64,000 nt of DNA from an uncultured Planctomycetales bacterium (GCA_964572155.1 CAZNDZ010000003.1:138224-202223), one strand, 5' to 3'. Counted from the first letter of the stretch, positions 7,242 through 63,192 are shown. The notes: generated from the sequence alone by a model not told the origin. Made by a program: numbers and translations.

Positions 7242-9347
7242 CTAAAAGCTACGCAAGACAAATACAAACAATAAAGCAAAACCCAAAATAGAAAAAAATA
7301 TCATCAAAAACAACATATTATCAGAAAAACGTAGCTCATATTGATGCCACCCTTGCATCGGAGAAACCTGAAGCATTCCAAATGGACCTTCTTTTACAGA
7401 TTGTCCTATTTCTTGATGATCTATGTATAATCTCCAATCTTTATGATAATTCGAACTTATTAAAATTTCTTGTCCTTCAAAGTTGCCCTCCCATTTTAAC
7501 CGACTTGGCACATAGGATGAAAGCATCACATTCTTTAAGGGAACATCATTTAATGCATCAAACAACACTTGATCGGGATTGGTCTGTTGCTGAATATACT
7601 TTAATGCTGCCCTTGGAATGCTCATCACCCGAGAAGATGTGTTCTTCAAACGATACTGATACCACGTTTTTGTTAAAACCTTCTTATGAAGAATGCTGAA
7701 TTCTTCCGAATACTTCACTTGCTTCTCATCGACAGGGATAAAATCATCTAAATGCAGTGGTGTTTGGGAACGAATGAACTCAACATTATTAAATTTCAAC
7801 CACTTGATAACATTTGGACTCCCCATCTCATATGTCAACTCCATACGATTATTCCAGCTCCTAAATGAGCAGGGATCTTTATCCGTGAGGACATACTTAA
7901 TCCAATTTGCTGCGTCGTTACCATTATAAAAAACAGAAACGCCATCAAACGTCTCTTGATTCTTGATAGAAGCTTGAGCAGAAAAGAAGCGTAATGGGAA
8001 ACAGTTATCTGAAACAGTCACAACACGAGATGGAACAACGTGATGGTCATAGGTAAATGGATCTAAATGCAAATATCCATAAGGTGCTGTTTCTGAGATG
8101 TAATAAAAAATTTTAAAAGGTGCCAAGAAGATCAACGCCAACAAGACCAACTTTATGCCATTGGTTGCGTACTTTAGAAAATCAAATAAAATACAAAGAC
8201 TTGAAAAAATCCCTAAAAAAATCAAGTATTTACCGTCGATCAATGGTCGATCTGGCCATAATAGGCTAGCTGATAATACCGCACAAACAACGATTTTAAC
8301 CACCCCAATCATAATCTTAAGAGGCCGATTATCTAGCGGAACTCGCTCTATCAAATAGACCGCCAAGAGCATCCAGAGGAAATTAATGAAATAATACCCT
8401 CTGCCCCATGCAAACGAGAACTTACTTAAAAATGGAATACCTGATAAGAGCGTACTTTGCGAAACAATCACAGCAATCGATACAATCAAAGCCAATAAAA
8501 TGAGAGCTTTAATGTTTTTCCAAAAGTTAAATAAAATAATAATACATAAACAAGGCACAATGATCTGCGCATGTTTCAAATAACCCATCAATGATTTAAA
8601 GCTAAATACCGGCGGAAGCGCCTCCCATAATACCCTGTTAGAATGAGCCCACTGTGAAGCGAAAGCTAAAAGATTGGGTAGATATAAGACTGCAAAAACA
8701 CCCCAAAACATCATGGAGAAACTAATATTCTTAAATCTAGTGTTCTTGTCTGATAGAAAGAAAACAACGATGCCATGCATGAGTGGCAACATGGGGACTG
8801 TATAGGGAGGATACATGAGCAACAACGCAAGCATTAAGAAACTAATCCTAATTCTCCAGTCGATGGGATGCTTCCCATGCGTTGTTAATGCCACAACCAA
8901 CGGCAATAGTGGTACTAAGATGACAAATGGGTTCTCATTAAACCAATAGAACAACGATAAGCTAATCAAACTACCATATAGTGCGGTTAGATGCCTAAAC
9001 CCAAGAAAATTAAAACAAAACATGTACGTTCCCGTCAGGATAAACGCATCTAAAATGATTTGAAAAATCGTATAAGATAAAGACGCCGGTAAGAATGCTG
9101 ACAATAAACTACACAAATGCTGCGGATGAACTGTTTCTAAATATGCTGGCCACCCTCGCATGATCGAGGCATTCCATGCATTATCAAAAGGATGCCGCCA
9201 AAACTCTCCCCCATGTTGAAACTTTGCAATGAGGATATCTGCCACATCAATTAAACGTACAGAAGCTGCCTCGCCTAAAATCAATCGATCTAAATTAAGC
9301 GCAATGGCAACAACAATAAGACAAAAGAGGACTTTATGAAGTTTCAT
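7242..9347 (-). CDS. Large polytopic membrane protein with C-terminal soluble domain, GT-C-like (YfhO/PMT-like architecture), paralog A
   Basis: 701 aa; more than 10 hydrophobic helices followed by ~280-aa hydrophilic C-terminal domain; about 45 percent identical by eye to 11923-14025 over the full length. Confidence 0.55.
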   Translation of the reverse strand: MKLHKVLFCLIVVAIALNLDRLILGEAASVRLIDVADILIAKFQHGGEFWRHPFDNAWNASIMRGWPAYLETVHPQHLCSLLSAFLPASLSYTIFQIILDAFILTGTYMFCFNFLGFRHLTALYGSLISLSLFYWFNENPFVILVPLLPLVVALTTHGKHPIDWRIRISFLMLALLLMYPPYTVPMLPLMHGIVVFFLSDKNTRFKNISFSMMFWGVFAVLYLPNLLAFASQWAHSNRVLWEALPPVFSFKSLMGYLKHAQIIVPCLCIIILFNFWKNIKALILLALIVSIAVIVSQSTLLSGIPFLSKFSFAWGRGYYFINFLWMLLAVYLIERVPLDNRPLKIMIGVVKIVVCAVLSASLLWPDRPLIDGKYLIFLGIFSSLCILFDFLKYATNGIKLVLLALIFLAPFKIFYYISETAPYGYLHLDPFTYDHHVVPSRVVTVSDNCFPLRFFSAQASIKNQETFDGVSVFYNGNDAANWIKYVLTDKDPCSFRSWNNRMELTYEMGSPNVIKWLKFNNVEFIRSQTPLHLDDFIPVDEKQVKYSEEFSILHKKVLTKTWYQYRLKNTSSRVMSIPRAALKYIQQQTNPDQVLFDALNDVPLKNVMLSSYVPSRLKWEGNFEGQEILISSNYHKDWRLYIDHQEIGQSVKEGPFGMLQVSPMQGWHQYELRFSDNMLFLMIFFSILGFALLFVFVLRSF

Positions 9348-28294: not shown

Positions 28295-29153
28295 GAACAT
28301 TTTCAGAACAAAGCAACGCACAATTTCATTTGAATTGTTCCCCCCTAAAACACCTGAGGGTGAAACAAAACTCTTTACCACCATTGAAAAACTTGGTTGT
28401 CTCAAACCTGATTTCTTCTCGTGCACCTATGGTGCGGGTGGGTCAAGCCGTGGAAAAACTTTAGAAATTGTCAGCCACATCCAAGATAAATATAAGATCG
28501 CGGCCATGGCGCATTTGACATGTGTCATGCATACCAAGGATGACATTAAGAATATTCTCGAGGATATGAAACAGCGCCACATCAACAATATCTTGGCCTT
28601 GCGTGGTGATCCACCAAAAGATAATCCTAATTACCAATTAGAAAAAGAAAACTTTGCTTACTCTTCTGACTTGATTAAATTTATCCGCAATTATCTTGGT
28701 GAGACAGCGACGATTGCTGCCGCAGGATTTCCGGAAGGGCATATCTTAGCACCCAACAAAATTTTTGATGCGGGCATCCTAAAAAGCAAGATCGATCATG
28801 GCGCGGACTTCATCATCACCCAATTATTTTTCAACAATCAAGAATATTACGATTACATCGCACGCTTAAAACACTTGGGCGTAACTGCACGCGTGATCCC
28901 AGGAATATTACCAATCACCGACTATAACGCGCTGGTTCGTTTTTGTGCTCTTTGCGGCGCCACCATCCCCCAGAACGTGCACGCTATCTTTAAACCCCTA
29001 GCTGATAATCCAGTTGCCACGCTTGAGGCCGGTATCAAATTTGCAGTTGAACAATGCCAAGATCTTCTTGATCATGGTGCACCTGGATTACACTTCTACA
29101 CGCTAAACAAAGTTTCCCCGACGCAAGAAGTTCTAAGTAAGCTTAAAATTTAA
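28281..29153 (+). CDS. metF: 5,10-methylenetetrahydrofolate reductase
   Basis: ISFELFPPKT, FSCTYGAGGS, AHLTC, LALRGDPP, colinear with E. coli MetF; start chosen at ATG (MPNIKNIF) rather than upstream TTG. Confidence 0.85.
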   Translation: MPNIKNIFRTKQRTISFELFPPKTPEGETKLFTTIEKLGCLKPDFFSCTYGAGGSSRGKTLEIVSHIQDKYKIAAMAHLTCVMHTKDDIKNILEDMKQRHINNILALRGDPPKDNPNYQLEKENFAYSSDLIKFIRNYLGETATIAAAGFPEGHILAPNKIFDAGILKSKIDHGADFIITQLFFNNQEYYDYIARLKHLGVTARVIPGILPITDYNALVRFCALCGATIPQNVHAIFKPLADNPVATLEAGIKFAVEQCQDLLDHGAPGLHFYTLNKVSPTQEVLSKLKI

Positions 29154-31125
29154 GTTTCACACCAGCGTTATACGACCTGCCTTGGGCTGGAAAATGCGAC
29201 TTGATGTTGGATGTAACGGCTTTGCTAACGTAGATGTCATAATGTTCATCTAGGATATTATCTACTTCCCCAAAAACTTCCCATGTGTCTTTGCTGTAAC
29301 TTATTCGCGAATCCAAAACAAAATATGGGTCGGTTTGCGGCAATGCATTGCCGATATCATTGATAGCGAATTGATTGCCAACATAACGACCTTGGAGCAT
29401 CCAATCCAAATGATCGGTTAACCCCACCGCTAAACTCATTGCCCCCTGAAATTGTGGGGCCATGGGGACTTTATTACCTTTATAAACACCGTTACTAAAC
29501 GTAGCATGCTGATATGTATAATTTGTTTTCCATAATAATTTTTTTATCTGCTGCGCTTTAAGCATGGCTTTTAGATCCACCTCTTGTTCATACTCTACCC
29601 CAATGCGGCGGGTTCGATCATAATTACTCGTCGCACCAAAGCCACCACCGCCAGCGGGATCTAAGAAGATTTCATTGCGATTGTCCATGACATACGGCGT
29701 TAGACTAACTTTCAAGACATCATTGAAACGATGTTTGACCCCAGCTTGATATTGCACGCCTTTTTGTTGGTTTAAACTGGTATTTAAACCATTGAACGTA
29801 TCAAACCAATCATCCGTTGTTAAAAAACGAAACGTTTGGCTGACGTTGGCAAATATATTGCTTTGTGGAGCATATTCATATCTCATTCCGCCACTGGCGA
29901 TATGTTTATCGGGGTTTTGTTGTTGATACGTCTTTGTGCCGCTGACTTGATTGAACGTATAGTAGGCCTTATCAAAACGCGTACCTGCCTCCAGAAATAG
30001 ATTATCGACAACTTCATAACTGCCATTGGTATAAACCCCAATCTCATTTTTGGTTATCGTCAAATCATCACTGTTGCCAGCACTGCCATATATCCAATTG
30101 TCATCGGTATAATAATCAACACCTGTTGCTAAATTCAACAGCTTACCGTCGATCAAACGTTCCAGGACATAGCGACCATTGATGCCCCAACTATTAATGT
30201 TGCGCTTGGTGGCATATTCGCCAAAGGAATAAAACACCGCGTAACTATCTCGATTACGAAATGATGCATCGACGATAAAATGACCTAAATCTTCATCAGC
30301 CCACGGATTAAAATCGGTCGTGATCGCAAACATCCGATCCTTGGTCATGGCATAGTCCTCAGGATTGGCGGTACCTTTAGGTCCAAGCGTTGCCAAAGGC
30401 CCATCTTTTAAACCACCGGTTAAACCATATTTATCTTCATGCCAATTTAATTTAAAATCAATCTTAATGGGTTCAATAGGGTTTATACCAAGACGGCCCA
30501 CATAATCGCGGCTACGCAATTGGCTGTTTGCCCTATATCCGTCGGTATCAAACTGCTGTGCGCTAAAATAATAATCCACCTTCGATTGCGCGCCTGAAAA
30601 TTCCTGAGATGTTTTTAAGGTGTCATAACTACCATAGGTTGAGGATAAAACCGCATGATGCCCTGCCTTGCCCTTCTTGGTGATGATATTAATGACCCCG
30701 CCAACGGCATTGTCTCCATATAAAACAGAAGCCCCGCCGCGAATGATTTCAATGCGTTCAATAGAGTCGATGGGAATTTGCAGAAAATCAGGACCAGAAT
30801 TGTCAACAGGATTGATGCGTCGATGATTAACTAGAAGCAAGACATTACGCGTTGCGGTATCACCAAAGCCTCTCATATCTGCGACAACCGTCTTTGGAGA
30901 ACTGTTATCTACAATTGCAATACCCAACTGACCTTTTAACACATCCCCCACACTTTGCGCGTGGCTTTGGGCAATATCTTGACTAGAAATGACCGTTACT
31001 GACGATGGTAAATGAGCAACATCTTGATCGTAACGACTAGCAGTTAAAACAATTTTTTGTAAATCAATGGTTTCTGCAAAAACGGGGGTGGCAAACAACA
31101 ACAAAAAAAGGCATAGTACAGGCAT
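29143..31125 (-). CDS. btuB: TonB-dependent outer-membrane receptor, likely cobalamin transporter BtuB given the upstream B12 riboswitch
   Basis: Signal peptide MPVLCLFLLLFATPVFA; TonB box ETIDLQKIVLTAS; plug domain; C-terminal F; SD GGGAG 5 nt before ATG at 31125. Confidence 0.8.
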   Translation of the reverse strand: MPVLCLFLLLFATPVFAETIDLQKIVLTASRYDQDVAHLPSSVTVISSQDIAQSHAQSVGDVLKGQLGIAIVDNSSPKTVVADMRGFGDTATRNVLLLVNHRRINPVDNSGPDFLQIPIDSIERIEIIRGGASVLYGDNAVGGVINIITKKGKAGHHAVLSSTYGSYDTLKTSQEFSGAQSKVDYYFSAQQFDTDGYRANSQLRSRDYVGRLGINPIEPIKIDFKLNWHEDKYGLTGGLKDGPLATLGPKGTANPEDYAMTKDRMFAITTDFNPWADEDLGHFIVDASFRNRDSYAVFYSFGEYATKRNINSWGINGRYVLERLIDGKLLNLATGVDYYTDDNWIYGSAGNSDDLTITKNEIGVYTNGSYEVVDNLFLEAGTRFDKAYYTFNQVSGTKTYQQQNPDKHIASGGMRYEYAPQSNIFANVSQTFRFLTTDDWFDTFNGLNTSLNQQKGVQYQAGVKHRFNDVLKVSLTPYVMDNRNEIFLDPAGGGGFGATSNYDRTRRIGVEYEQEVDLKAMLKAQQIKKLLWKTNYTYQHATFSNGVYKGNKVPMAPQFQGAMSLAVGLTDHLDWMLQGRYVGNQFAINDIGNALPQTDPYFVLDSRISYSKDTWEVFGEVDNILDEHYDIYVSKAVTSNIKSHFPAQGRSYNAGVKLKF

Positions 31126-31144
31126 GTAAACTCCCATCTCTCGT

Positions 31145-31280
31145 AGGGTTAATTAAAACGACTGCATCAGCGGGCATTCGGACTTGTTCCCTAGAGGGAC
31201 TTACCGTAGCGGGACTGCTCCTGAGTTGCACAGGATTTCCCCATCTGATACTTCAACAACGCTTCATACCCTGCATACAA
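31145..31280 (-). promoter_or_regulatory. Cobalamin (adenosylcobalamin) riboswitch in 5-prime leader of the TonB-dependent receptor gene
   Basis: Minus-strand GGGAAAUCCUGUGCAACUCAGGAGCAGUCCCGCUACGGUAAG matches the conserved core (E. coli btuB leader AGGGAAUCCAGUGCGAAUCUGGAGCUGACGCGCAGCGGUAAGG); downstream AAGUCCGAAUGCCCGCUG resembles the B12 box. Confidence 0.7.
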
Positions 31281-34022: not shown

Positions 34023-35021
34023 CTACGCTTCCCTTAAAAATTTCGCTGAGGTGTGCGGGTACGTTGGGGTTATATGTAACCCTGTTCCCCATTCAAAACC
34101 AATGCTGCGGGTTAATTTGGGGATAATTTCAATATGCCAATGATAACATTTTGGCTTGGAATACTTGACCGGCGCCGTATGGATAAAGAAATTATACGAC
34201 GGGTTCGATAATGCTTTGCGCATGCGCTTTAATACATCCAACAAATGCGCCGATAAATCTCCTAACATCTCAACTTGCATATCAGCAAATGATGCCATAT
34301 GGGATTTGGGCACAATCCACGTTTCAAAAGCATACCGTGGTGCATACGGACAAAAAGCTAAATATGAATTGTTCTCGGCCACAATGCGCTCGCGGTCCTT
34401 ATATTCTTGTTCTAAGACATCACAAAAGACGCAACGTTGATTAGCTTCATAATATTGATGACTGCCGCGCAATTCTTCATTAACAGCTTTTGGCACCATG
34501 GGCAGCGCAATGATTTGGCTATGCGCATGCTCGACGGTCGCACCAGCAGACGCCCCAAAATTTTTAAAGACACTCACATATTGCACACGCTCATCAAGAG
34601 ACAAGGCTTTGCTGCGGCTTAAGAATTGTTGCAACACAAAACCCATTTCCTCGACGCTTAAATCTGCTAAATTCTTTTGATGATCAGCTGTCTCAATGAC
34701 GACCTCATGCGCGCCAACACCCCCCATGACATCAAACATGCCATAAGCTTCCTTATCAACATCACCTTCTGTTGTAAGCGCTGGAAATTTATTTGGCACC
34801 GTGCGCACCAACCAACCCGAAGAATTAGGTTCACTTGCTTTCGGACGCAAGGCATCTACTTCTGGTGGCGTAAAATGTTCTTTACCTGGGCAAAATTGAC
34901 AGGTGTTCTTATGACCTGGGAGATTATTGGTTTCCTTAATAAAATCCCCTGGACCTTTTTGATGGTCGCTATCAATGATGACCCAACGGCCGACAATAGG
35001 ATCTCGACGTAATTCAGCCAT
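34023..35021 (-). CDS. Galactose-1-phosphate uridylyltransferase-family (GalT-type HIT) hexose-1-phosphate nucleotidyltransferase, catalytic motif intact
   Basis: 332 aa; Zn site CQFCPG; active-site HAHSQ (HxHxQ); C-terminal HWHIEIIP. Confidence 0.75.
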   Translation of the reverse strand: MAELRRDPIVGRWVIIDSDHQKGPGDFIKETNNLPGHKNTCQFCPGKEHFTPPEVDALRPKASEPNSSGWLVRTVPNKFPALTTEGDVDKEAYGMFDVMGGVGAHEVVIETADHQKNLADLSVEEMGFVLQQFLSRSKALSLDERVQYVSVFKNFGASAGATVEHAHSQIIALPMVPKAVNEELRGSHQYYEANQRCVFCDVLEQEYKDRERIVAENNSYLAFCPYAPRYAFETWIVPKSHMASFADMQVEMLGDLSAHLLDVLKRMRKALSNPSYNFFIHTAPVKYSKPKCYHWHIEIIPKLTRSIGFEWGTGLHITPTYPHTSAKFLREA

Positions 35022-35989
35022 TAAATGTTTACCTCCCGTAAGAACTTTGCTGTCATTTCTGGAGGGATAGGATTAATATAAAAACCTGTGCCTCGCTCAA
35101 AACCTGCAGTGCGGGTTAAGCGGGGCAATAATTCAATATGCCATGAATAACACTCAGGCATATCTAAATCAAATGGCGCACTTTGAATGACATAGTTATA
35201 TGCCGGGTCATTCAAACCGATTTTATATTTTAAGAATAAATTTTTCATCACGATCGCTAATTCCGTCTCCAACCCTTCTATCCCATGGACATAATCGTAA
35301 TATTGACGCTTTTCTTTAGGCATGATCCATACTTCAAAAGGAAAGCGTGCGGCAAAAGGACAAAAGGCAATGAAATTCTCCGTCTCTAAAACAATGCGCT
35401 CTTTTTCTTTAAGCTCCTGACGAACTAAGTCATAAAAAAGTGAGCGCTCATGAAAGTTAAAGTACAATTTAGCGCCATTGATCTTATCTTGCACACGCAT
35501 GGGCAAGACAGGAATGGCCATGATTTGAGAACGAGCATGTCCAATGTTGCGACTTCCTGCAGCAACGCCATAATTCTTATACGCTAAGACATACTTAATT
35601 GATTTATCTTGATGATGATGCCACATGCGTAGCGCATACGTCTTAAAAACAGCACGAATTTGTTCGACGGGTAAATCTGCTAAATTGGCAATATGCTCAG
35701 GAGTCTCAATGACCACCTCGTGGCTGCCATGCGAATGACATGATTGATATAAACCATCCTGTCTTACTGTTACTGATTGAGTCTCAGAAAAGATAGGCGT
35801 ACCGCTTTTGACAACGCGCACATTTTCATGTGCTAATAATAGTGTGGATTGGGTGTCGTGACAAAATGGGCACCCTTCTTTTTGAGTAACTGCTGGTGAT
35901 GGATCAACAAACGCCGCTGGACGACGAGCACGTTCTGTGGCAATGATGACCCATCGACTAACGATTGGATCTTTGCGTAATTGAGGCAT
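35021..35989 (-). CDS. GalT-type HIT family paralog with nucleophilic His replaced by Arg (GHARSQ), probably non-canonical or inactive
   Basis: 322 aa; CPFCHD Zn site; aligned motif HARSQ versus HAHSQ in downstream paralog; Arg codon ACG(rc CGT) at 35531-35533. Confidence 0.7.
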   Translation of the reverse strand: MPQLRKDPIVSRWVIIATERARRPAAFVDPSPAVTQKEGCPFCHDTQSTLLLAHENVRVVKSGTPIFSETQSVTVRQDGLYQSCHSHGSHEVVIETPEHIANLADLPVEQIRAVFKTYALRMWHHHQDKSIKYVLAYKNYGVAAGSRNIGHARSQIMAIPVLPMRVQDKINGAKLYFNFHERSLFYDLVRQELKEKERIVLETENFIAFCPFAARFPFEVWIMPKEKRQYYDYVHGIEGLETELAIVMKNLFLKYKIGLNDPAYNYVIQSAPFDLDMPECYSWHIELLPRLTRTAGFERGTGFYINPIPPEMTAKFLREVNI

Positions 35990-46275: not shown

Positions 46276-47856
46276 TCAAATCTGATTTGATAATAATATA
46301 TGTCGTGCGATATTGTCCGCCAAAATACCCGCACCTTTCGGCGTGCAATGACCAAAATCCCCAGCAAACGCATCTGTGAAATATGTTTCATATTTTCCCT
46401 GTGTTAATGCTTGCTTAAAGATGATGCCATTATCAATAAATAAAACCCCCTTAGTAACATCAAGCATTTTCTCTAGACCATGTGTATGGCGCGTCGCATA
46501 CGAGGACACCACCATGTCAATATGGTGGCCTTGAACGATCTTTATAATCTGTCGATAATTAGAAATCGTTGCATTTAATGGCTTCTTTTCACTGAGAGCA
46601 TCAGCCATATTAATATAAACCAAAGCCTTATCTTTCATATCCGTTTGATTATAAATATTAGCTAAACCACGAATAATTTCTACACTCTGGGGATACTTGA
46701 CTAGCGCATTTTTTAAGACCACCTCTGCCCTTGAGAATTGATTGCGTTTCATATACCAATCAACCAAATCTAAAATCACATGCAGACGATCACCTTTTTG
46801 AACATTTTTACTATCAATCTCTGCTGCTGTATCGATCATCGCTTCCATATCATCGTATCGCCCTTGGGCCCCATAACAAAACCCTAGTTGTGCATAGATT
46901 TTTGAATTTTGCGGTGCTTTAAGCTTTGCTTTTGCATATAAATCCTCTGCATCAGAAAAACGTGCTTGTTTGGTATAAAAAGACCCAAGCTCTATAAAAA
47001 TATCCATGTCATCAGGATTTTTATCAAGGCCATCTTTTAATGCTCGCTCAGCCAAAACCTCTTTTTTCTGGTCAGCATAAAATCGGCTTAAGAGTGCATA
47101 ACTCCAAGATTTCTTGGGGTTCTTTGACACCGCCAATAAATATAGCTTTTCAACTTCATCAACTCGCCCTTGTAACAGATAAACCTTTGCCAACTGCTCG
47201 TAGCCCCAATCTTTCTTTGGATTGATTGAAATGCCCTTCTTAAACAATGCCTCGGCCAGCTTAAATTCTCTTTGTTCAATATAATATTGTCCTAACTCGA
47301 TATATGCCCCAGAACCTTTGGGATGAATTTTAATTTCTTTTTTCAATCGATCTATTGCTGATAACGGTTTAGCATCTTGACCCAATTCTTGCATGATGTG
47401 TGCCCACAAAAATTTTCCAACCCTAATAATACGAATATCGCCTATCGCCACTTTAAATTTATCCGACGAAGAATCTGTATAAGCAACCGTGTTATCGCTA
47501 TCATTAATGCCCACCATAGCGATCACCATATTCGGCTTGTAGAGTTCGATGTCTTTCTTTAAATTTGCTACAATATCTGCAGAATCACTCCCAGGTATGC
47601 CTCGATTAATCACCTCAAAACGTTTTCCTTTTGCTCGATCATTTAAGATGCGCTCTAACTGAGATGGATACGATTCTTTGCCACCAGCAAATGTCGTCGA
47701 CTCTCCAATACACATGATCCGATAAGCATGCGCGTCTTTTAAATGCGCCTTATTCTGATAATCTTGAATAGAAATCGATGCTGCGCCACCTAGACGTAAA
47801 AATAGCTCTAGGCAAAATAAAAATAGCAGTGGTCTTATGATTAATCGTATTGTCAT
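46276..47856 (-). CDS. Secreted SGNH/GDSL hydrolase whose catalytic domain is split by an about 250-aa TPR-repeat insertion; PatB/AlgJ-like partner of the adjacent MBOAT
   Basis: Signal peptide; block I CIGESTT, block III GINDSDN, then TPR repeats, then block V GDFGHCTPKG (DxxH) at C-terminus. Confidence 0.65.
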   Translation of the reverse strand: MTIRLIIRPLLFLFCLELFLRLGGAASISIQDYQNKAHLKDAHAYRIMCIGESTTFAGGKESYPSQLERILNDRAKGKRFEVINRGIPGSDSADIVANLKKDIELYKPNMVIAMVGINDSDNTVAYTDSSSDKFKVAIGDIRIIRVGKFLWAHIMQELGQDAKPLSAIDRLKKEIKIHPKGSGAYIELGQYYIEQREFKLAEALFKKGISINPKKDWGYEQLAKVYLLQGRVDEVEKLYLLAVSKNPKKSWSYALLSRFYADQKKEVLAERALKDGLDKNPDDMDIFIELGSFYTKQARFSDAEDLYAKAKLKAPQNSKIYAQLGFCYGAQGRYDDMEAMIDTAAEIDSKNVQKGDRLHVILDLVDWYMKRNQFSRAEVVLKNALVKYPQSVEIIRGLANIYNQTDMKDKALVYINMADALSEKKPLNATISNYRQIIKIVQGHHIDMVVSSYATRHTHGLEKMLDVTKGVLFIDNGIIFKQALTQGKYETYFTDAFAGDFGHCTPKGAGILADNIARHILLSNQI

Positions 47857-47859
47857 AAT

Positions 47860-49260
47860 CTAAAATTGAAAATAAATAAACTCTTGGGCATTCATCACTC
47901 CCCAGCCTATTAATAAATATGTCATCCCTGCGTAAATCACCGTCTTAAGCACCCAGTGTTGTTTAAAAATCACCATTAAATCGTTTGTCTTAGCTTGCCA
48001 AATCTGAACCATTAACAAAGGCCCAATAAATGATATTAACTTTAACCACAAGACGCCTTGCTGACTAAGCTTGAAATTAAAAAATATCGCCTTTAACATC
48101 TCAATAACTTGCCCCATGGATTGAGCTCTAAACAATAACCATCCTAAAACCACAAAATGAAAAAATATGATGACCTTAAAAAATGATCCACCGTGCGCTT
48201 GTGCTTTATCCTTGGTTATAAACCTGTGCGCAATCAATAACAATGCTTGATACGCACCCCAAGCAACAAATGTCCACGCTGCACCGTGCCAAATACCTCC
48301 GAGCAACATGGTCAACAATAAAGCGATGTACATGGTGCGCTTGCCGTTTTGATTCCCACCTAAAGGAATATATACATAATCTCTTAACCACGTCGACAAA
48401 CTAATGTGCCAACGTTTCCAGAATTCTTTTGGATTTGAGGCAAAATAAGGCAAATTAAAGTTAATTGCGATCTCAAAACCCATGCATTTACCCAAACCAC
48501 GCGCCATATTGGAATATCCATCAAAATCACAAAAAATTTGAAAAGCAAACGCATATAATGCCACCATCACAACACCCCCTTCATAAGGACCAGGCGATGC
48601 AAATACAGGATTAACAATTTTAGCTAGATTATCAGCCACAAACATCTTCTCGAACAATCCCCAAAAAAAAAGAAAACATCCTTCATAGACACCGTTTATT
48701 GTAATTGTCCTTGGGGTGACAATCTGGGGCAAGAAGCTCTTGGCACGCATGATGGGTCCCGCCACCAAATGTGGGAAGTAAATGACAAATAATAAGTAAT
48801 CGCCATACTTTTTAGCTGGTTTAATCAAACCGCGGTAAACATCGACGGTGTAACTGATGGCCTCAAATGTATAAAAAGAAATACCTACGGGAAGGATAAT
48901 ATTTAAAACAAAGGTACTTGCCGGAGAGACTAGATGCAAACTTTCAAGTACAAGCGTAACATTCTCAATAAAGAAATTAAAATATTTAAAGAAGCCCAAA
49001 ATCGACAAATTGACAACGATGCTAATAATTAAATACTTTTTCTTATCTTTTAACAATGAGCTTAGCGCAATGCGTTTAGCACAAAAATAATCCACGCTAA
49101 TTGAAATCAACATCAAAGCCAAAAACTTCCAATTCCATGACGCATAAAAGAAACAGCTAGCAACAATTAACAAACGATTCTGCCAGCGATGCTTGAGCAA
49201 CAAATACAGCCCATACACGATTGTGAAAAAAACCAAAAATTTAAAGGAATTGAATATCAT
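47860..49260 (-). CDS. MBOAT family membrane-bound O-acyltransferase (AlgI/DltB/PatA-like); likely start at MIFNSFKF (track start is GTG at 49278)
   Basis: WHISLSTWLRDYVYIPLGGN and GGIWHGAAW hallmark MBOAT motifs with catalytic His. Confidence 0.9.
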   Translation of the reverse strand: MIFNSFKFLVFFTIVYGLYLLLKHRWQNRLLIVASCFFYASWNWKFLALMLISISVDYFCAKRIALSSLLKDKKKYLIISIVVNLSILGFFKYFNFFIENVTLVLESLHLVSPASTFVLNIILPVGISFYTFEAISYTVDVYRGLIKPAKKYGDYLLFVIYFPHLVAGPIMRAKSFLPQIVTPRTITINGVYEGCFLFFWGLFEKMFVADNLAKIVNPVFASPGPYEGGVVMVALYAFAFQIFCDFDGYSNMARGLGKCMGFEIAINFNLPYFASNPKEFWKRWHISLSTWLRDYVYIPLGGNQNGKRTMYIALLLTMLLGGIWHGAAWTFVAWGAYQALLLIAHRFITKDKAQAHGGSFFKVIIFFHFVVLGWLLFRAQSMGQVIEMLKAIFFNFKLSQQGVLWLKLISFIGPLLMVQIWQAKTNDLMVIFKQHWVLKTVIYAGMTYLLIGWGVMNAQEFIYFQF

Positions 49261-49280
49261 ATTTAAAATATAATGCACAC

Positions 49281-49955
49281 ATGCTACAACGCAAAAAGAT
49301 CATCTTTATATGCATATTGTTATGTATCAGCTTAATAACATTATTTTACCTTTCTCCTGAGCAAACATCGCCAATACGCGTTGCATGCGTTGGCGACAGC
49401 ATTACATCGGGTTCCGGAACGCAGGATAGATCACAAGATAGTTACCCTGCCCAGCTCGCACGCATGCTTGGCAAAGACTGGGATGTAAAAAACTTTGGAG
49501 CAAATGATACAAGTATTCTTTCTAAAGCAATAAAACCCTACACAAAAAAACGAGCTTTCAAATTAGCCAAAAGTTTTAAACCACACATTGTAATTATTTG
49601 CCTTGGCACCAATGATTCAAAACCAGAAAATTGGGCACATCATTCAGACTTTACAAATGATTACATAGCATTGATCAAGAAGTTCCAACGCCTACGTTCT
49701 CATCCGCGCATCTTTCTTTGCTTACCGCCCCCAGCTTTTACATCAGCATATGGCATCAATGACTCAATTATTAAAGAACAGATCATCCCTATGATCATAG
49801 ATATTGCCAAAAACACCAATGTCGAAACCTTAGACCTCTATAATGCCTTACAGGACAAACAAGACTTATATTTTGACAAGATTCATCCCAACACGCAAGG
49901 TTACACCATCATTGCCGAAAAAATCCACGATTTGCTCACCAAAAAACTCAATTAA
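49281..49955 (+). CDS. Secreted SGNH/GDSL hydrolase (O-acetyl esterase, Ape-like)
   Basis: Signal peptide; ACVGDSITSG block I, GTNDS block III, DKIHP block V. Confidence 0.8.
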   Translation: MLQRKKIIFICILLCISLITLFYLSPEQTSPIRVACVGDSITSGSGTQDRSQDSYPAQLARMLGKDWDVKNFGANDTSILSKAIKPYTKKRAFKLAKSFKPHIVIICLGTNDSKPENWAHHSDFTNDYIALIKKFQRLRSHPRIFLCLPPPAFTSAYGINDSIIKEQIIPMIIDIAKNTNVETLDLYNALQDKQDLYFDKIHPNTQGYTIIAEKIHDLLTKKLN

Positions 49956-51531
49956 CATTTAACTTCATGATGTTGTACGACGGGGTTTGCGCAACCACAT
50001 GATAATGTTCTTGGATAAACTGCATGGCATCCTGATAATATTTCCGATTAGATTCAACTTTAAAATGAACTGTATGAAAATAATCTGGCACTTGTTTTAA
50101 ACAAACCGTATATTGTGGCGGCTTTTCCTTCAAAGCTTTCATCCAGCCATTGTGCCAATCAGGGCTAAACCACGACGATGTTACAAGCGCAAAACGCCCC
50201 ACCCATGGGCGATTTACAATAAAATGCATGGCTCCCATTTCAGGATACATCAACATTGGTTCATGAGGCGCTACATGTTGATTTACAAAATCATTAATCC
50301 CGTGAATGTCTTCCGCTTGATCTTTTGGAACAACTAAACCCTTTAATCTGGGAATATCTAAGACAACCGTTTCTTGTCCTTTAAGTGGGCTTTTTCTAAA
50401 GAATAAAAATCTTTTATTAATCCGTTCTACACTAAAGATTAATGAAGAAATCACAATGATCGCTAGAAAAACCACAGCAATCTTTTTACGATAGATCATT
50501 AACGATTCAACCGCTCGTGCCAACAAATAAAATAGAAGAACTTTCTGAGGCTGTAAGGACATTTCAAAGACGCTTGCCCACAAATTTCGAAAGCCTGTCA
50601 CATAGACCATAAAACCATACACAGCAACGGCGGCTGCAGCTTGATCTACCCAATCTAATTGTTTCTTACGCCAACGCCATATCAAATACCCAACAAAAAT
50701 CAAATAACAATATACCGGCGTCATCTGACGAAAGTTTTTATTAATCGGTACAAATAACGCATGCAAAACTTGTCCTATACTAGAAGGAACAGGCTCAGTC
50801 TGAGGAAAAGTATGGAGCATTTCACGGGCAACAACAAGCTGGGTATTCATATATTCAAACCATGCACCATTCATGCCAAGGTAATAATTATATGGCAATA
50901 AGAACGCAAATAACATGATCCAAAATACCATCAATGCCCGACGATTGGCCCACGCTAAAACCACAGTGATCGCAACCCCTAAACAGACGCCAATCTCGAT
51001 GCTGGTTAACCCTGCAATGACGGTTAATGCTGTCATTGCGATCAACCATCCGCGATGCTTAGACTTTAAGAATCGAATTAAACACCACACGGCCAATAAA
51101 CCCCACCCGTAACGCATGCCTCCCCAATACGTGAAAACCACTCTGGGAAATGTTCGAGTGACTAAGACGGGAACAAAAGTATAAAATAACAATCGTGAAG
51201 GGATGATTTCACGCGCAATTAAAACACATGCACATAACGTTATGACTGTTCCGACGTAGAAATACGCGCTTAACACTGCCGCATTTGTTCCAAATACTTT
51301 CATTAACAAGGCAGGTAAATATAAATCCATTGGGGCGCGTAGATAAAAGAAATCCCGATACGGGATTTGACCATCTAAGATGGCGTTTATGCCGGGTAAA
51401 TACAAACCAAGCTCAAATAAATTTATACGTTGATGTAAAAAATACGGATGAAATGTTATCAAACACACAATAAAACAGGCTATCCATGCGTCTGTGCGTG
51501 TTAGAGGCGTCTTAATTAAGTTTTTTACCAT
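49948..51531 (-). CDS. Polytopic membrane protein with C-terminal soluble domain, putative GT-C-like (loop motif GQIPYRDFFY shared with 15068-16603)
   Basis: 527 aa; about 11 TM helices then about 150-aa hydrophilic domain. Confidence 0.45.
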   Translation of the reverse strand: MVKNLIKTPLTRTDAWIACFIVCLITFHPYFLHQRINLFELGLYLPGINAILDGQIPYRDFFYLRAPMDLYLPALLMKVFGTNAAVLSAYFYVGTVITLCACVLIAREIIPSRLLFYTFVPVLVTRTFPRVVFTYWGGMRYGWGLLAVWCLIRFLKSKHRGWLIAMTALTVIAGLTSIEIGVCLGVAITVVLAWANRRALMVFWIMLFAFLLPYNYYLGMNGAWFEYMNTQLVVAREMLHTFPQTEPVPSSIGQVLHALFVPINKNFRQMTPVYCYLIFVGYLIWRWRKKQLDWVDQAAAAVAVYGFMVYVTGFRNLWASVFEMSLQPQKVLLFYLLARAVESLMIYRKKIAVVFLAIIVISSLIFSVERINKRFLFFRKSPLKGQETVVLDIPRLKGLVVPKDQAEDIHGINDFVNQHVAPHEPMLMYPEMGAMHFIVNRPWVGRFALVTSSWFSPDWHNGWMKALKEKPPQYTVCLKQVPDYFHTVHFKVESNRKYYQDAMQFIQEHYHVVAQTPSYNIMKLNVN

Positions 51532-59691: not shown

Positions 59692-60276
59692 TTACTGGCT
59701 GGTTTTCATACCTTTGGCATAATACTCTTCGTTATAGTAGTTGCCGTGTTCAATGATGAGCGTCGACTTTCCGTCGGTGCGCGTTAATGCTTTCTGATAT
59801 GCTGGGAAAATTTGATCCGCTGTATCAAGTTCAATGACTTCGATCCAATGAAATAATGCACGAAATGCTTGTGCGTAATTCCCAATATGTTGATGCCCTG
59901 GGTGCACTGGCGCATCAGGACCTGTTGCCACTCTAATGATAACTTTAATCGGCCATTTACCTTCGCTGACATCTGGCATCTTATCAATCATATTAGCCAT
60001 ATCCGCCGCCGCTAACATCAAAAAGTTTTGTCTAGGATAAACCGAAACAGGTATATATCCTGCCAATGCCATCCCTAAGGTAAACTGCATTTGAAAGCTT
60101 TCATTGATGGGCATTTCAAGCGTGCGGTCTTTAGGGCAATCCCTCAAGGTTTGAAACATGAATGTGCCAGGCCCTGCAACGGTTTGACCAACAAACTGCA
60201 CCTTATCTTGAGTGGCAAGCCACTCCATGGTGCGTTTTAATTCATCAAAATATTTGAGTTGTGTGGATGTTTCCAT
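59692..60276 (-). CDS. Transketolase-like TPP enzyme, pyrimidine-binding (Pyr) domain subunit
   Basis: INESFQMQFTLGMALAG (catalytic Glu region like TK VREFGM) and GPDAPVHPGHQ. Confidence 0.55.
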   Translation of the reverse strand: METSTQLKYFDELKRTMEWLATQDKVQFVGQTVAGPGTFMFQTLRDCPKDRTLEMPINESFQMQFTLGMALAGYIPVSVYPRQNFLMLAAADMANMIDKMPDVSEGKWPIKVIIRVATGPDAPVHPGHQHIGNYAQAFRALFHWIEVIELDTADQIFPAYQKALTRTDGKSTLIIEHGNYYNEEYYAKGMKTSQ

Positions 60277-60278
60277 AA

Positions 60279-60890
60279 TTAGAACTTAATGAGCTTACCC
60301 AAACCTGAATGTGGATAGCCGTTGGTGTATTTGAAATATATGATCTTCTTTTCGTATTTTGTCCCCTTAAACCAAGGATCAGGTGAGCCCCATGTTTCGC
60401 GGGTATTGGTCATGACGGACACACCATTATCTCCGACGATAAAGACCGCTGGTAAATCAAAATTACAAGCATATTTAACCGCTTCATGGAAAATGCCTGT
60501 TTCAGCTGACATATCACCACAAAAAAGAAAAGCCCGACCTTTTTTACCTTGATTCTTAAGCGACCATGCGACCCCTGTAGCCGTACCCATTAAGGAACCG
60601 ACAATACCTGAGCATAAAACTTTCTTTTCAGGGAAACATAAAGAAATGCTGCGACCTCTAAGAATCGCATCTTTGACATCTTTGGCAGGAACACCTTTAA
60701 GTAACGCTAATTCATGCGAATCCCAGAATCCAAAAATATAATCATCATCATTGATATCATAATCTTTGAATATTTGAATTAACGCATCTTCACGGCCAGA
60801 ACGCAAATGCACAGGTGCACGGATAACGCCTGTTGCAAAAACGTCAGCAATATCTTTTTCAAAAGCAATGATTTCTTCTTTAGTTAACAT
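60279..60890 (-). CDS. Transketolase-like TPP enzyme, diphosphate-binding (PP) domain subunit
   Basis: APVHLRSGREDAL and FLFCGDMSAETGIFHEAVKYA...VFIVGDNG TPP-binding GDG-X-N motif. Confidence 0.65.
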   Translation of the reverse strand: MLTKEEIIAFEKDIADVFATGVIRAPVHLRSGREDALIQIFKDYDINDDDYIFGFWDSHELALLKGVPAKDVKDAILRGRSISLCFPEKKVLCSGIVGSLMGTATGVAWSLKNQGKKGRAFLFCGDMSAETGIFHEAVKYACNFDLPAVFIVGDNGVSVMTNTRETWGSPDPWFKGTKYEKKIIYFKYTNGYPHSGLGKLIKF

Positions 60891-60925
60891 AAACGTTGGT
60901 TAGTATAACAAAGTCACTATTTTGG

Positions 60926-61558
60926 TCAAGCCAAAATAGGCAATATTAGTCTCCTTAAGAATAATCCAATACTCCCCCACATAGTGATAAACCATAACGG
61001 CAAGCCTATGACATGAACTCCTGGGTATCCCCAAATCCCAAAACCAACCCCGACATATTCAATAACAGCGCCCATCAAAACAAAATATCCTACATAGATT
61101 AAATCATATCGCTCATGAAAGAAAATTAGACTTAAACCCATTAAAGCAAAGGTCACATACGTCAATAATGATTGATCTGCAATGCATGAAAAACTTAATG
61201 CAAACCCCACGGCAAACATCCCAGCTACTATTTTATTGGTTTTAGGTTGTGGCCCACCCAATAATCGCAATCCATGTAATACATAAAAACCATACATCAA
61301 ACATTCCCATACAGGAATACCAAGAAAGTCTGGGTTTTTAAAATAAAACACACCTTGTTTCACCGCCATGACATCTAAGACAGAGAATACTGAACAAACA
61401 CTAAAAAATAAGATGATCTCCTGAAAGACTAGCGGATTAAATGTGATCAGCCACAGAACACAAAAAGCGACCGCTTTAACATAATTCCCAGGAACCACAA
61501 CCAAAATGGCGATGGTTAGTATCAGTTGGGTTATGTATTTTAACTGTTGAGAGTTCAA
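60926..61558 (-). CDS. Small polytopic membrane protein of unknown function, translationally coupled (ATGA) to the FAD oxidase gene
   Basis: 210 aa; about 6 TM helices. Confidence 0.45.
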   Translation of the reverse strand: MNSQQLKYITQLILTIAILVVVPGNYVKAVAFCVLWLITFNPLVFQEIILFFSVCSVFSVLDVMAVKQGVFYFKNPDFLGIPVWECLMYGFYVLHGLRLLGGPQPKTNKIVAGMFAVGFALSFSCIADQSLLTYVTFALMGLSLIFFHERYDLIYVGYFVLMGAVIEYVGVGFGIWGYPGVHVIGLPLWFITMWGSIGLFLRRLILPILA

Positions 61559-63192
61559 TTGGCAGAATAGCGACGAGGCGCAATGATCCCTTGAGGGTCA
61601 ATCGCATCTTTAATTGTTTTTTGCATCGCCCAAAATGTTTTATCCACGTTAACCAAATCCCCCATCATGTCAATATTGGCACGATATGGAAAGAACCCAA
61701 GTTTACGACCCTCTTCTAAAAGCTCAGCAAAACACGCCTTGGCTTGAGCGACTTCCGTTGGATTTTGTGGATTAAATAAAATCGGCACCGTGCTATCAAA
61801 ACATCGGTCTGATAACGTCGTCAAGGTAATGAGCGGCTCTATGCGATGCTTCACGCAAACTTGATTCACAAAATCAACATACGTACGCACGGTTTCTGGC
61901 TTCATGGGCACTAAGGGTGCATACCATATCAAACCACAACCATCTCGTGCGGGATTAAGTTCTGAAGTATCAGGCAATCCCAACGGCATCTTGCGATAAC
62001 ACAACGGCAAGGCGATTTGATTGGGCCTTCCCTCTAAGATATCAAAAGATAATTTCATTTTTTGAATACGGTTTAATGATGTCTTTGTCCATTGCGCTGG
62101 TAAACATGATAAAATCTTCTCTAGGAAATTTAATTGTCCTCGAGAAAGAAAAATCAATCGCTTGGTGTGTGGATAAACTTTATTGCGCAACACCCGCTTG
62201 GCAACATCCACCATTTCTTTCTTACCATAAAATGATCCCAAACATGTCCATGGTGCAAAATCCATATCTGTTGCCATCTTCTTTAGGATGTTGACATAAT
62301 TAGCTGGGTCTTTATCAATTTCTTCAAACGGATAATATGCGCTCATCGATAAAAGGCGCAAAGAATTCATAATATTGATAGATCCCGTCACCCCGCCAAT
62401 CTCGCGCAATGTCTCACGCACCAAAGCCACGGCTTTCTCAAGGTTCTTTTCATCACGCATCTCAAAGATAAATGCCCCGACCGACTCCGGACGCGCAGCT
62501 AATTGAATGGTGATCTTGGTGACTATGCCAAAGTTACTTTGGGTAAATAATCCATCTAAATAAGGGCCAATGCCCCACTTAAATATCTGGTCAACATTAA
62601 TGCAGTCTTGTTCATAGATGGCTGAATGATAGATGCTCCCATCGGGAAGCACGGCCTCTAAACTCATGAGCGATAAGAAATGATCTGAAATAGGCGTTAA
62701 TCCATAGCCGCGTTCTAAGGCATTCCCTAAAATACTTGCATGAGGACCAGCACCTGTGACGGGCGTTAAATATGCATCATCATGTTCTTTAAGGAACTTA
62801 GACAACAATTCTTGCGTTACCCCAGGCTCAACGGAAACAGTACCGAGATCCGCATCAAACTCTACGATGCGATCCATCCCTGAAAGATCTAAGATAACAC
62901 AGCCATTGGTCACTGGGTTGGCTGAACCATATCCCCAATTATTCCCCTTGCTTATTGGATACAGCGGCACTTGATATGTCGATGCCACTTTAACGATGGC
63001 CACAATCTCGTCAGTTGTCTTTGCTTGTAACGTACAGAAAATTTGGCGCGGCGCACATGCGGTTGTATCTTGAGTGTATTTAACCAAAGCCTCTTGATTC
63101 ATTAAGACGCGAGCATCACCTAAAATTTTTTGCCAGCTAACAATCGCTTGATTAATCTGTGTCATGTCGGTCATTGGACAATCCTTCTCCAC
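61555..63192 (-). CDS. FAD-linked oxidase (PCMH/vanillyl-alcohol-oxidase superfamily, FAD_binding_4 domain)
   Basis: 545 aa; N-terminal FAD-binding region TTDEIVAIVKVASTYQVPLYPISKGNNWGYGSANP. Confidence 0.8.
   Translation of the reverse strand: MEKDCPMTDMTQINQAIVSWQKILGDARVLMNQEALVKYTQDTTACAPRQIFCTLQAKTTDEIVAIVKVASTYQVPLYPISKGNNWGYGSANPVTNGCVILDLSGMDRIVEFDADLGTVSVEPGVTQELLSKFLKEHDDAYLTPVTGAGPHASILGNALERGYGLTPISDHFLSLMSLEAVLPDGSIYHSAIYEQDCINVDQIFKWGIGPYLDGLFTQSNFGIVTKITIQLAARPESVGAFIFEMRDEKNLEKAVALVRETLREIGGVTGSINIMNSLRLLSMSAYYPFEEIDKDPANYVNILKKMATDMDFAPWTCLGSFYGKKEMVDVAKRVLRNKVYPHTKRLIFLSRGQLNFLEKILSCLPAQWTKTSLNRIQKMKLSFDILEGRPNQIALPLCYRKMPLGLPDTSELNPARDGCGLIWYAPLVPMKPETVRTYVDFVNQVCVKHRIEPLITLTTLSDRCFDSTVPILFNPQNPTEVAQAKACFAELLEEGRKLGFFPYRANIDMMGDLVNVDKTFWAMQKTIKDAIDPQGIIAPRRYSAN

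Follow-up and report, generated by a model that had tools for sequence, protein, structure and literature searches.

A putative two-component glycan O-acyltransferase with a tetratricopeptide repeat array inside its SGNH domain

Several described acylation systems pair a membrane protein of the MBOAT family with a protein of the SGNH type. In the PatA/PatB system of Neisseria and Campylobacter, the MBOAT protein is encoded beside an extracytoplasmic SGNH protein with a Ser-His-Asp triad, an SGNH esterase (Ape1) is encoded nearby, and acetyl transfer is presumed to follow a ping-pong scheme (PMC9487903). In alginate acetylation, the MBOAT protein AlgI acts with the periplasmic SGNH-like transferases AlgJ and AlgX on an exported polysaccharide, and AlgX is bound by AlgK, a tetratricopeptide repeat (TPR) lipoprotein (PMC9734138). 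In the DltB/DltD/DltX system, the MBOAT protein has an N-terminally anchored SGNH-like partner and the acyl group is relayed outside the membrane (PMC13653941). TviD, the O-acetyltransferase of the Vi antigen, carries an SGNH-type catalytic domain and TPRs on one polypeptide; the TPRs bind the polymerase TviE and are dispensable for catalysis (PMC8760489). Discontinuous SGNH domains, in which two halves form one monolithic catalytic domain, are known from the CE20 esterases and from Ape1, where a carbohydrate-binding module (CBM) is inserted in the SGNH domain (PMC12313940; PMC9487903). In this study, we analyzed a 64,000-nt stretch of DNA from an uncultured Planctomycetales bacterium (hereafter the window; all coordinates count from its first letter), in which an MBOAT gene is followed by a gene encoding an SGNH protein split by TPRs. 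The pair shares features with each of these systems.

Three open reading frames (ORFs) were found within 46276-49955, where a first-pass annotation of the sequence had placed them:

47860..49260, minus strand: membrane acyltransferase of the MBOAT family; 466 aa if it starts, as is likely, at ATG 49260
46276..47856, minus strand: 526-aa SGNH protein split by TPRs (coordinates include the stop codon), starting 3 nt past the MBOAT stop
49281..49955, plus strand: esterase-like SGNH/GDSL protein of 224 aa, compact and canonical, with a hydrophobic anchor at its N-terminus
49261..49280: divergent gap of 20 nt separating the start codons of the MBOAT and compact SGNH genes

We consider it probable (roughly 0.6) that the MBOAT and the 526-aa protein form a two-component extracytoplasmic transferase, which would add O-acyl (most likely O-acetyl) groups to a glycan made by a surface-glycan operon and would carry a built-in TPR arm. 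Such a module is an extension of the known acylation paradigm and does not overturn current models. The first-pass annotation had read the locus as an MBOAT followed by an extracytoplasmic SGNH partner with blocks I-III and block V set apart by TPRs, and this arrangement was borne out by the ORFs, by Pfam and by residue conservation. The parts of the 526-aa protein are as follows:

47740..47853, minus strand: N-terminal anchor helix, residues 2-39, a helix in the AlphaFold2 (AF2) model and one transmembrane segment by hydropathy
47794..47811, minus strand: anchor motif L-E17-L-F-L-R21 (E-x-x-x-R), at the outer end of the anchor helix
47470..47727, minus strand: SGNH N half, residues 44-129, strands 1-3, with the Lipase_GDSL_2 match and invariant residues
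47692-47706, minus strand: block I GESTT, within the SGNH N half
47497-47511, minus strand: block III GINDS, within the SGNH N half
47359..47469, minus strand: family-specific helical connector, residues 130-166, with AF2 helices at 130-139 and 142-157
46591..47358, minus strand: TPR array, residues 167-422, 15 helices forming about seven 34-residue repeats plus a capping helix
46279..46590, minus strand: SGNH C half, residues 423-526, with helix alpha-3, strands 4 and 5, block V and the C-terminal helix
46345-46362, minus strand: block V G-D500-F-G-H503-C, within the SGNH C half

The Pfam family Lipase_GDSL_2 matched residues 49-132 only, with positions 1-87 of its 178-position profile. TPR families (TPR_17, TPR_19, TPR_14, TPR_2 and TPR_1, E-values from 7e-23 to 2e-12) matched roughly at residues 184-440, and the last ~90 residues had no Pfam match. 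The hallmark residues of the SGNH/GDSL superfamily were all found: the block I serine in G51-E-S53-T-T, the block II glycine (G86), the block III asparagine in G116-I-N118-D, and the DxxH of block V in D500-F-G-H503. In an alignment of 46 full-length homologues, S53, G86, N118 and H503 were present in all 46 sequences and D500 in 40; in a larger homologue set, position 500 was Asp in 115 of 132. The whole of G51-E-S53-T-T and G116 were likewise invariant across the 46, as were Y453, N476, D495 and G502 in the C-terminal part. The helical connector contains a conserved R-x-Y-K-L helix in the alignment, which is kept in a natural relative lacking TPRs (P0074), and residues 156-165 form a low-confidence linker in the AF2 model (pLDDT <50). 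The anchor helix has its hydrophobic core at about residues 2-20 and a positively charged N-terminus, from which an N-in topology with the SGNH domain outside the cytoplasm is predicted. Both SGNH proteins of the locus had been called secreted; an extracytoplasmic location agrees with our results, but both appear to be held by one uncleaved N-terminal helix and not to be freely secreted. An estimate of about 250 aa of TPRs was close for the TPR helices (256 aa), whereas the whole insertion between the SGNH halves is ~300 aa long (residues 130-427).

Structure prediction and domain mapping of 46276-47856 placed SGNH strands in both halves, around a TPR excursion. The AF2 model, built with the alignment of the 46 full-length homologues, had a mean pLDDT of 89 and a pTM of 0.73, with most of the TPR array above 90. 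It shows strands at 45-51, 80-86 and 110-114 in the N half, connector helices within 130-157, 15 helices at a spacing of ~34 residues over 167-422, and in the C half a helix (428-443), two strands (447-451 and 471-474) and a C-terminal helix. This is the order of secondary structure elements of an SGNH domain, interrupted by an excursion that follows block III and precedes helix alpha-3. A Foldseek search of the PDB with the full-length model returned only TPR proteins, with consensus-TPR and OGT TPR superhelices at the top. Since this search was silent on the SGNH core, continuity of the fold was tested in three other ways. The C half alone gave no Pfam match, and its profile-search alignment to block V of PDB SGNH proteins was weak, so that an hhalign comparison was needed to settle the matter. 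The TPR-deleted family profile aligned with the compact SGNH protein over 175 columns (97.7% probability, E=1.9e-12), pairing GESTT with GDSIT, GINDS with GTNDS, and GDFGH with DKIH. The TPR-less relative P0074 (307 aa) matched Pfam Lipase_GDSL across positions 1-207 of the 208-position profile, and its model (pLDDT 85, pTM 0.81) superposed on whole SGNH enzymes (the acetyl-xylan esterases 7DDY and Axe2, and TesA) with target-normalised TM-scores of 0.63-0.73. The TPR-deleted profile also matched TesA, Axe2 and lysophospholipase structures at about 1e-8. Based on these models and comparisons, residues ~44-129 and ~423-526 are predicted to build one SGNH fold, with a five-strand sheet drawn from both halves. 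The first-pass annotation had named two outcomes that would speak against a split domain, namely separate proteins due to a frameshift and a C-terminal segment lacking the Asp-His dyad. The gene is a single conserved ORF with no frameshift, and D500-x-x-H503 is present; a frameshift or fusion artefact was rejected because the full-length architecture is kept in hundreds of homologues.

These homologues form a large family. A search with the 526-aa protein gave 110 homologues at E<=1e-5, about 60 of them aligned over >=90% of the query. At least 523 relatives were found among GTDB species representatives, and at least 815 clusters at 50% identity matched at E<=1e-30 in an exhaustive search seeded with P0074. 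The best 150 clusters have lengths of 367-682 aa, and 147 of them matched in two stretches, that is, as split proteins. Across the family, 206 to 594 residues separate the block I Ser from the block V His, so the insertion site can hold as little as a short helical hairpin or as much as an array of more than ten repeats. Judged from sequence, the split form is the norm in this very large environmental family. The architecture, which had been described as unusual, is therefore unusual in comparison with characterised SGNH enzymes but not among its own relatives, and SGNH domains split by other inserts are known (CE20, PMC12313940; Ape1, PMC9487903). Members are annotated in public databases as "tetratricopeptide repeat protein". 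Most come from metagenome-assembled genomes (MAGs) of Candidatus Omnitrophota, which also hold the nearest relatives of both the MBOAT and the split SGNH protein of the window; others come from Elusimicrobia, Firestonebacteria, Hydrogenedentota and MAGs labelled Planctomycetales or Planctomycetia. Several members per genome are common, at times in tandem arrays, and 24 of 80 loci carry more than one.

Some individual loci of the family deserve mention. An Omnitrophota MAG (JAQTRK01) carries a tandem of four to five paralogues of 549-686 aa (L004, 6001-13953) beside several B12-binding radical SAM genes. At least five member loci (L008, L014, L031, L041 and L046) occur in DATJPV01, labelled 'Patescibacteria group bacterium', in an Omnitrophota-like pattern; this label may be unreliable. 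Recurrent neighbours of family members are carbamoyltransferases of the NodU/CmcH type (12 loci), GT-C membrane glycosyltransferases of the PMT_2 and YfhO types, GT2 glycosyltransferases and sugar epimerases, seen at L041, L046, L086/L087, L090 and others. These neighbours point to periplasmic glycan-tailoring loci in general.

In full-text literature searches, no account of TPRs splitting an SGNH domain was found. In TviD the TPRs follow a complete SGNH domain, and the protein is cytoplasmic and membrane-associated, uses a Cys nucleophile, is without blocks II and III and has no MBOAT partner (PMC8760489). The 526-aa protein is not of this type, as its TPRs lie between blocks III and V and it has a Ser nucleophile and a transmembrane anchor. 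In AlgK-AlgX the TPR and SGNH parts are separate proteins in a complex, whereas here the TPRs are covalently inside the SGNH fold. The inserts of CE20 enzymes and Ape1 are a beta-sandwich or a CBM that shape the substrate site of a hydrolase; the insert described here sits in an MBOAT-linked protein and is an alpha-solenoid whose repeat number varies.

The MBOAT protein matched the Pfam MBOAT family (PF03062) with 91.6 bits (cut-off 27; E=7.7e-26). It has multiple hydrophobic segments and is polytopic. Its longest ORF, 47860-49278 on the minus strand, begins at a GTG (49278); the 466-aa form starting at ATG 49260 was called in two independent assemblies with an identical gene (L001 and L002) and is fully covered by homologues of 462-478 aa. 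Omnitrophota MAGs are the source of most homologues at 55-72% identity. One residue of the protein was located by its sequence context:

48406..48408, minus strand: His285 codon, in the motif RWHISLSTWLRDYVY, read from the sequence and inside the DltB-aligned region

The motif RWHISLSTWLRDYVY places His285 in the W-H-x-S-x-x-x-W-x-R-D-Y context of the MBOAT family. His285 is the signature histidine of MBOAT proteins and would be catalytic.

The protein is homologous to the DltB structures 6BUG and 8JEM (E=5e-33), with 6BUG aligned over residues 97-345. As DltB structures are its only solved homologues, as the best NCBIfam model is also DltB (TIGR04091), and as some partners of related MBOATs are DltD- or DUF1574-like, a Dlt-like aminoacylation has to be considered, in which the MBOAT would receive D-alanine or a different aminoacyl group from a carrier protein and hand it to the SGNH partner, which would pass it on to a glycolipid or a teichoic-acid-like polymer. 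We regard this as highly improbable. The DltB model scored 166.5 bits against a cut-off of 375, no DltA, DltC or DltX-like genes were found within about 10 kb on either side, and the 3 nt that separate the MBOAT from its partner leave no space for a small ORF. In addition, the relatives belong to diderm-type candidate phyla. In contrast to the Dlt system, the locus thus has no carrier protein, ligase or DltX, and the partner is a classical GDSL-type SGNH protein and not a member of the DltD family.

The nature of the acceptor is suggested by the neighbouring genes. The pair sits in a long minus-strand gene array that covers at least 37.5-63.8 kb of the window and includes glycosyltransferases (GT2, GT4, GT9 and GT28-like), two DegT-type aminotransferases, epimerases, methyltransferases, a B12-radical SAM enzyme, a split transketolase-like pair and an FAD oxidase. 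A GHMP kinase, an NTP transferase and a HAD phosphatase are also present, a set which we infer to be that typical of activated-heptose synthesis. The locus contained neither a Dlt carrier or ligase nor alg genes, and no exporter was evident in it. Based on this gene content, the acceptor is argued to be a surface glycan and not peptidoglycan.

This bears on the assignment made by the first-pass annotation, which had likened the three genes to patA-patB-ape. If true peptidoglycan O-acetylation were the function, the MBOAT would be PatA, the split SGNH protein PatB and the compact SGNH protein Ape, acting on O6 of MurNAc. The gene logic is indeed alike (MBOAT, periplasmic SGNH protein, esterase), and the partner directly follows the MBOAT, 3 nt away, as expected of a PatB-type gene. 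There is also weak similarity to PatB and its family DUF459 (PF04311), with 19.4 bits for the window protein and 26.6 bits for a relative (L088), precomputed PF04311 matches on several family members, and the PatB structure 7TJB among the structural neighbours. However, the 19.4 bits, obtained with the TPR-deleted sequence, fall short of the cut-off of 27.2; DUF459 was not among the best 25 of the 28 Pfam families matched by the full 526-aa protein; and PatB ranked only 50th among the structural neighbours of P0074. The compact SGNH protein (224 aa) has no inserted CBM, and a sequence search of the PDB with it gave CE2 and GDSL proteins but no Ape1. Glycosyltransferase and nucleotide-sugar genes surround the pair, where PatA/PatB form a stand-alone oap cluster, and multiple paralogues per genome fit many acceptors better than peptidoglycan alone. 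The partner further differs from PatB in its N-terminal transmembrane anchor and its ~300-aa helical/TPR insertion. A specific PatA/PatB/Ape assignment was thus not upheld, and we consider peptidoglycan O-acetylation quite improbable here. The suggestion of an alginate-type system was not borne out either: the partner had no AlgX_N-like Pfam match, matching classical GDSL models instead, and no genes for AlgF, AlgK or AlgE are present in the locus.

Further features of the gene neighbourhood were noted. The context gene next to the compact SGNH gene is

49948..51531, minus strand: polytopic membrane protein, 527 aa, with its 3' end overlapping the compact SGNH gene by 8 nt in convergent orientation

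It has at least five hydrophobic segments and no Pfam or NCBIfam match, and its only homologue among the loci compared is a 553-aa ORF in L085. An assignment as a GT-C glycosyltransferase was rejected and the protein left without a family, since jackhmmer over the loci compared gave no link to the PMT_2 or YfhO neighbours of other loci. Large membrane proteins without a family also flank members on the P0003 contig (576 aa), at L006 (575 and 549 aa) and at L090 (514 and 679 aa). At the head of the operon, 59692-63192 on the minus strand holds the split transketolase-like pair (E1_dh and Transket_pyr fragments, 203 and 194 aa) and the FAD-binding oxidase, and two adjacent GalT/HIT-like nucleotidyltransferase genes lie at 34023-35989 on the same strand; together, these genes suggest an unusual modified sugar. 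An AdoCbl-II (cobalamin) riboswitch was detected at 31164-31251 on the minus strand (40.4 bits, above the gathering score), just upstream of a 664-aa ORF (29143-31137).

Seen from the MBOAT side, a member of the split-SGNH family adjoins or overlaps the MBOAT gene in every close relative examined. The gene order on the P0003 contig is MBOAT, split SGNH, the 576-aa membrane protein and a methyltransferase, and the first two are also adjacent in L069. In L086/87 a 539-aa TPR form overlaps the MBOAT gene upstream and a 434-aa form lies downstream, with three PMT_2 glycosyltransferases and a carbamoyltransferase as neighbours; in L090 a 495-aa TPR form lies upstream of the MBOAT, beside a YfhO-type glycosyltransferase; in L088/89 and L091 the adjoining forms have 435-443 aa and degenerate repeats. 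In nearly all cases, MBOATs at a greater distance (37-50% identity) are followed by a translationally coupled gene encoding 320-400 aa, and the partners sampled were DUF1574/DltD-like or GDSL-like. An MBOAT with an N-terminally anchored SGNH-like partner is thus a recurrent combination; the window pair fits this general rule, and it is the architecture of the partner that is unusual.

A second line of evidence comes from the anchor helix. E17 was found in 43 and R21 in 45 of the 46 full-length homologues, and E-x-x-x-R is present in 110 of 116 family members (95%) as against 40 of 577 other ORFs. The motif also occurs in 21 of the 47 ORFs directly downstream of more distant MBOATs, compared with 27 of 336 other ORFs (Fisher p=2e-9); these otherwise unrelated, SGNH-like partner genes include those at the loci L092, L106, L110, L113, L114, L117, L124, L126, L135, L136, L151, L165 and L169. 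The compact SGNH protein lacks it. E-x-x-x-R may be a hallmark by which MBOAT partners can be told. When the catalytic halves were compared in a distance analysis, MBOAT-adjacent members did not come out as a clade of their own. The spread of the motif together with the lack of a separate clade is compatible with, but does not prove, the use of an MBOAT in trans by non-adjacent paralogues.

Following the paradigm of PatA, AlgI and DltB, a cytoplasmic donor would supply the acyl group (acetyl being the most likely), and the MBOAT would pass it across the inner membrane. The 526-aa partner, held at the membrane by its N-terminal helix, would take the acyl group on Ser53, with His503 and Asp500 completing the triad and G86 and N118 serving as the oxyanion hole. 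The group would then be moved to a hydroxyl of the heptose/amino-sugar glycan that the neighbouring genes presumably make. If TviD and AlgK-AlgX are a guide, the TPR arm would most likely attach the enzyme to a second envelope protein or to the polymer itself; such a tethering role, which the first-pass annotation had also proposed, is plausible.

Several points weigh against this mechanism. An MBOAT was found within 10 kb at only 2 of the 78 genome loci of the split-SGNH family, and linkage as a family-wide trait was rejected; with no MBOAT in that range at the other 76 loci, the family as a whole need not depend on one. The closest orthologue locus (L085, 54% identity) retains the gene on a 14.9-kb contig with no MBOAT in ~10 kb upstream or ~2.3 kb downstream. 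The closest structural neighbours of the family are hydrolases (acetyl-xylan esterases, TesA) and not transferases, and sequence cannot tell an esterase from a transferase. The acyl group, its donor and its acceptor are all inferred, and the packing of the two halves in the model rests on secondary structure, pLDDT and homology, not on measured contacts. The split SGNH protein could be a stand-alone periplasmic hydrolase that acts as a glycan de-O-acetylase, lipase or lysophospholipase and is directed to its place by the TPR arm, with MBOAT adjacency reflecting a shared substrate or regulation and no acyl hand-off. The many paralogues away from any MBOAT, the L085 locus and the esterases and thioesterases among the best structural and sequence neighbours would all fit, as would the canonical oxyanion-hole residues G86 and N118. 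We nevertheless regard a hydrolase as unlikely, because adjacency to or overlap with the MBOAT recurs in all its close relatives examined, because an MBOAT with an anchored SGNH-like partner is the general rule, because E-x-x-x-R is common to partners of other MBOATs and missing from the compact esterase, and because a dedicated esterase of the compact type is already encoded next door.

The compact SGNH protein matched Pfam Lipase_GDSL_2 contiguously (profile positions 1-177 of 178, E=3.9e-25), and its motifs on the plus strand are GDSIT (49392-49406), GTNDS (49605-49619) and DKIHPN (49875-49892). The esterase domain of the NCBIfam model AxeA1 (acetyl-xylan esterase) also matched, with E=1.3e-59 but under the full-length cut-off. 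Its homologues are GDSL esterases of the Planctomycetes-Verrucomicrobia-Chlamydiae (PVC) group. A link to a split SGNH gene was seen only in the window and in one 54%-identical lineage (L085), in divergent orientation in both, while the next-closest homologues (45-50% identity) have unrelated neighbourhoods. Consequently, the compact protein was rejected as a conserved third component. Of the trio proposed by the first-pass annotation, the MBOAT/SGNH pair recurs in close MBOAT relatives and the third member does not. The compact protein is probably an O-acetyl esterase editing the same glycan; with homologues in unrelated contexts the link is weak, and an Ape-like editing role, though reasonable, has weak support.

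Within the minus-strand array, which extends over at least 26 kb (~37554-63854), the compact SGNH gene alone lies on the plus strand, and its inverted placement is also seen in L085. The divergent gap, given as 2-20 nt by the first-pass annotation, is indeed 20 nt with the MBOAT starting at ATG 49260 and 2 nt with GTG 49278. With a 20-nt gap at its 5' end and an 8-nt overlap at its 3' end, the promoter of the compact SGNH gene must sit in MBOAT coding sequence, and MBOAT transcription must start inside the compact SGNH gene or read through it antisense. One sigma-70-like match was found on the plus strand at 49240-49269, overlapping the first MBOAT codons; a consensus promoter scan of the divergent region was not above shuffled expectation (14 sites against 9.1 +/- 3.6).

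The MBOAT gene also contains the longest homopolymer of the window:

48663..48671, minus strand: T9 homopolymer in the MBOAT ORF (codons ...CFLFFWG...), the sole run of >=9 nt in the 64 kb

Runs of this length were expected 10.2 +/- 4.6 times, and runs of >=8 nt were found at 2 loci against about 28 expected. In one independent assembly (L003, ERR15459718) the tract is T8 instead of T9, near position 9186, and the MBOAT is broken into ORFs of 211 and 272 aa. Either phase variation of the acyl-donor gene by strand slippage or an error in assembly may account for the difference. On a Logan contig of 19,888 bp (P0113), the same MBOAT is called in an N-terminally truncated form of 417 aa from Met50. 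A more speculative, rather unlikely extension of the two-component model is that E-x-x-x-R is a docking or acyl-relay signature through which the paralogues of Omnitrophota and related phyla would all draw acyl groups in trans from one or few MBOAT channels. Each paralogue would then address a different acceptor or envelope machine with a TPR arm of its own length, as in a modular toolkit for periplasmic acylation, and in this genome the single donor gene could be switched by slippage at the T9 tract.

Through its TPR-only name in public databases, a catalytic SGNH domain has been hidden in a large family that is spread over poorly known candidate phyla, including Omnitrophota, Elusimicrobiota and relatives of the PVC group. 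The family represents a third design for the coupling of catalysis to scaffolding: next to separate proteins (AlgK-AlgX) and appended repeats (TviD), a solenoid is placed inside the catalytic fold, with a length from none to more than ten repeats. The anchor-helix motif could serve as a searchable marker for MBOAT partners in general. If the link to the MBOAT is real, the family would show how periplasmic acyltransferases are targeted to their acceptors.

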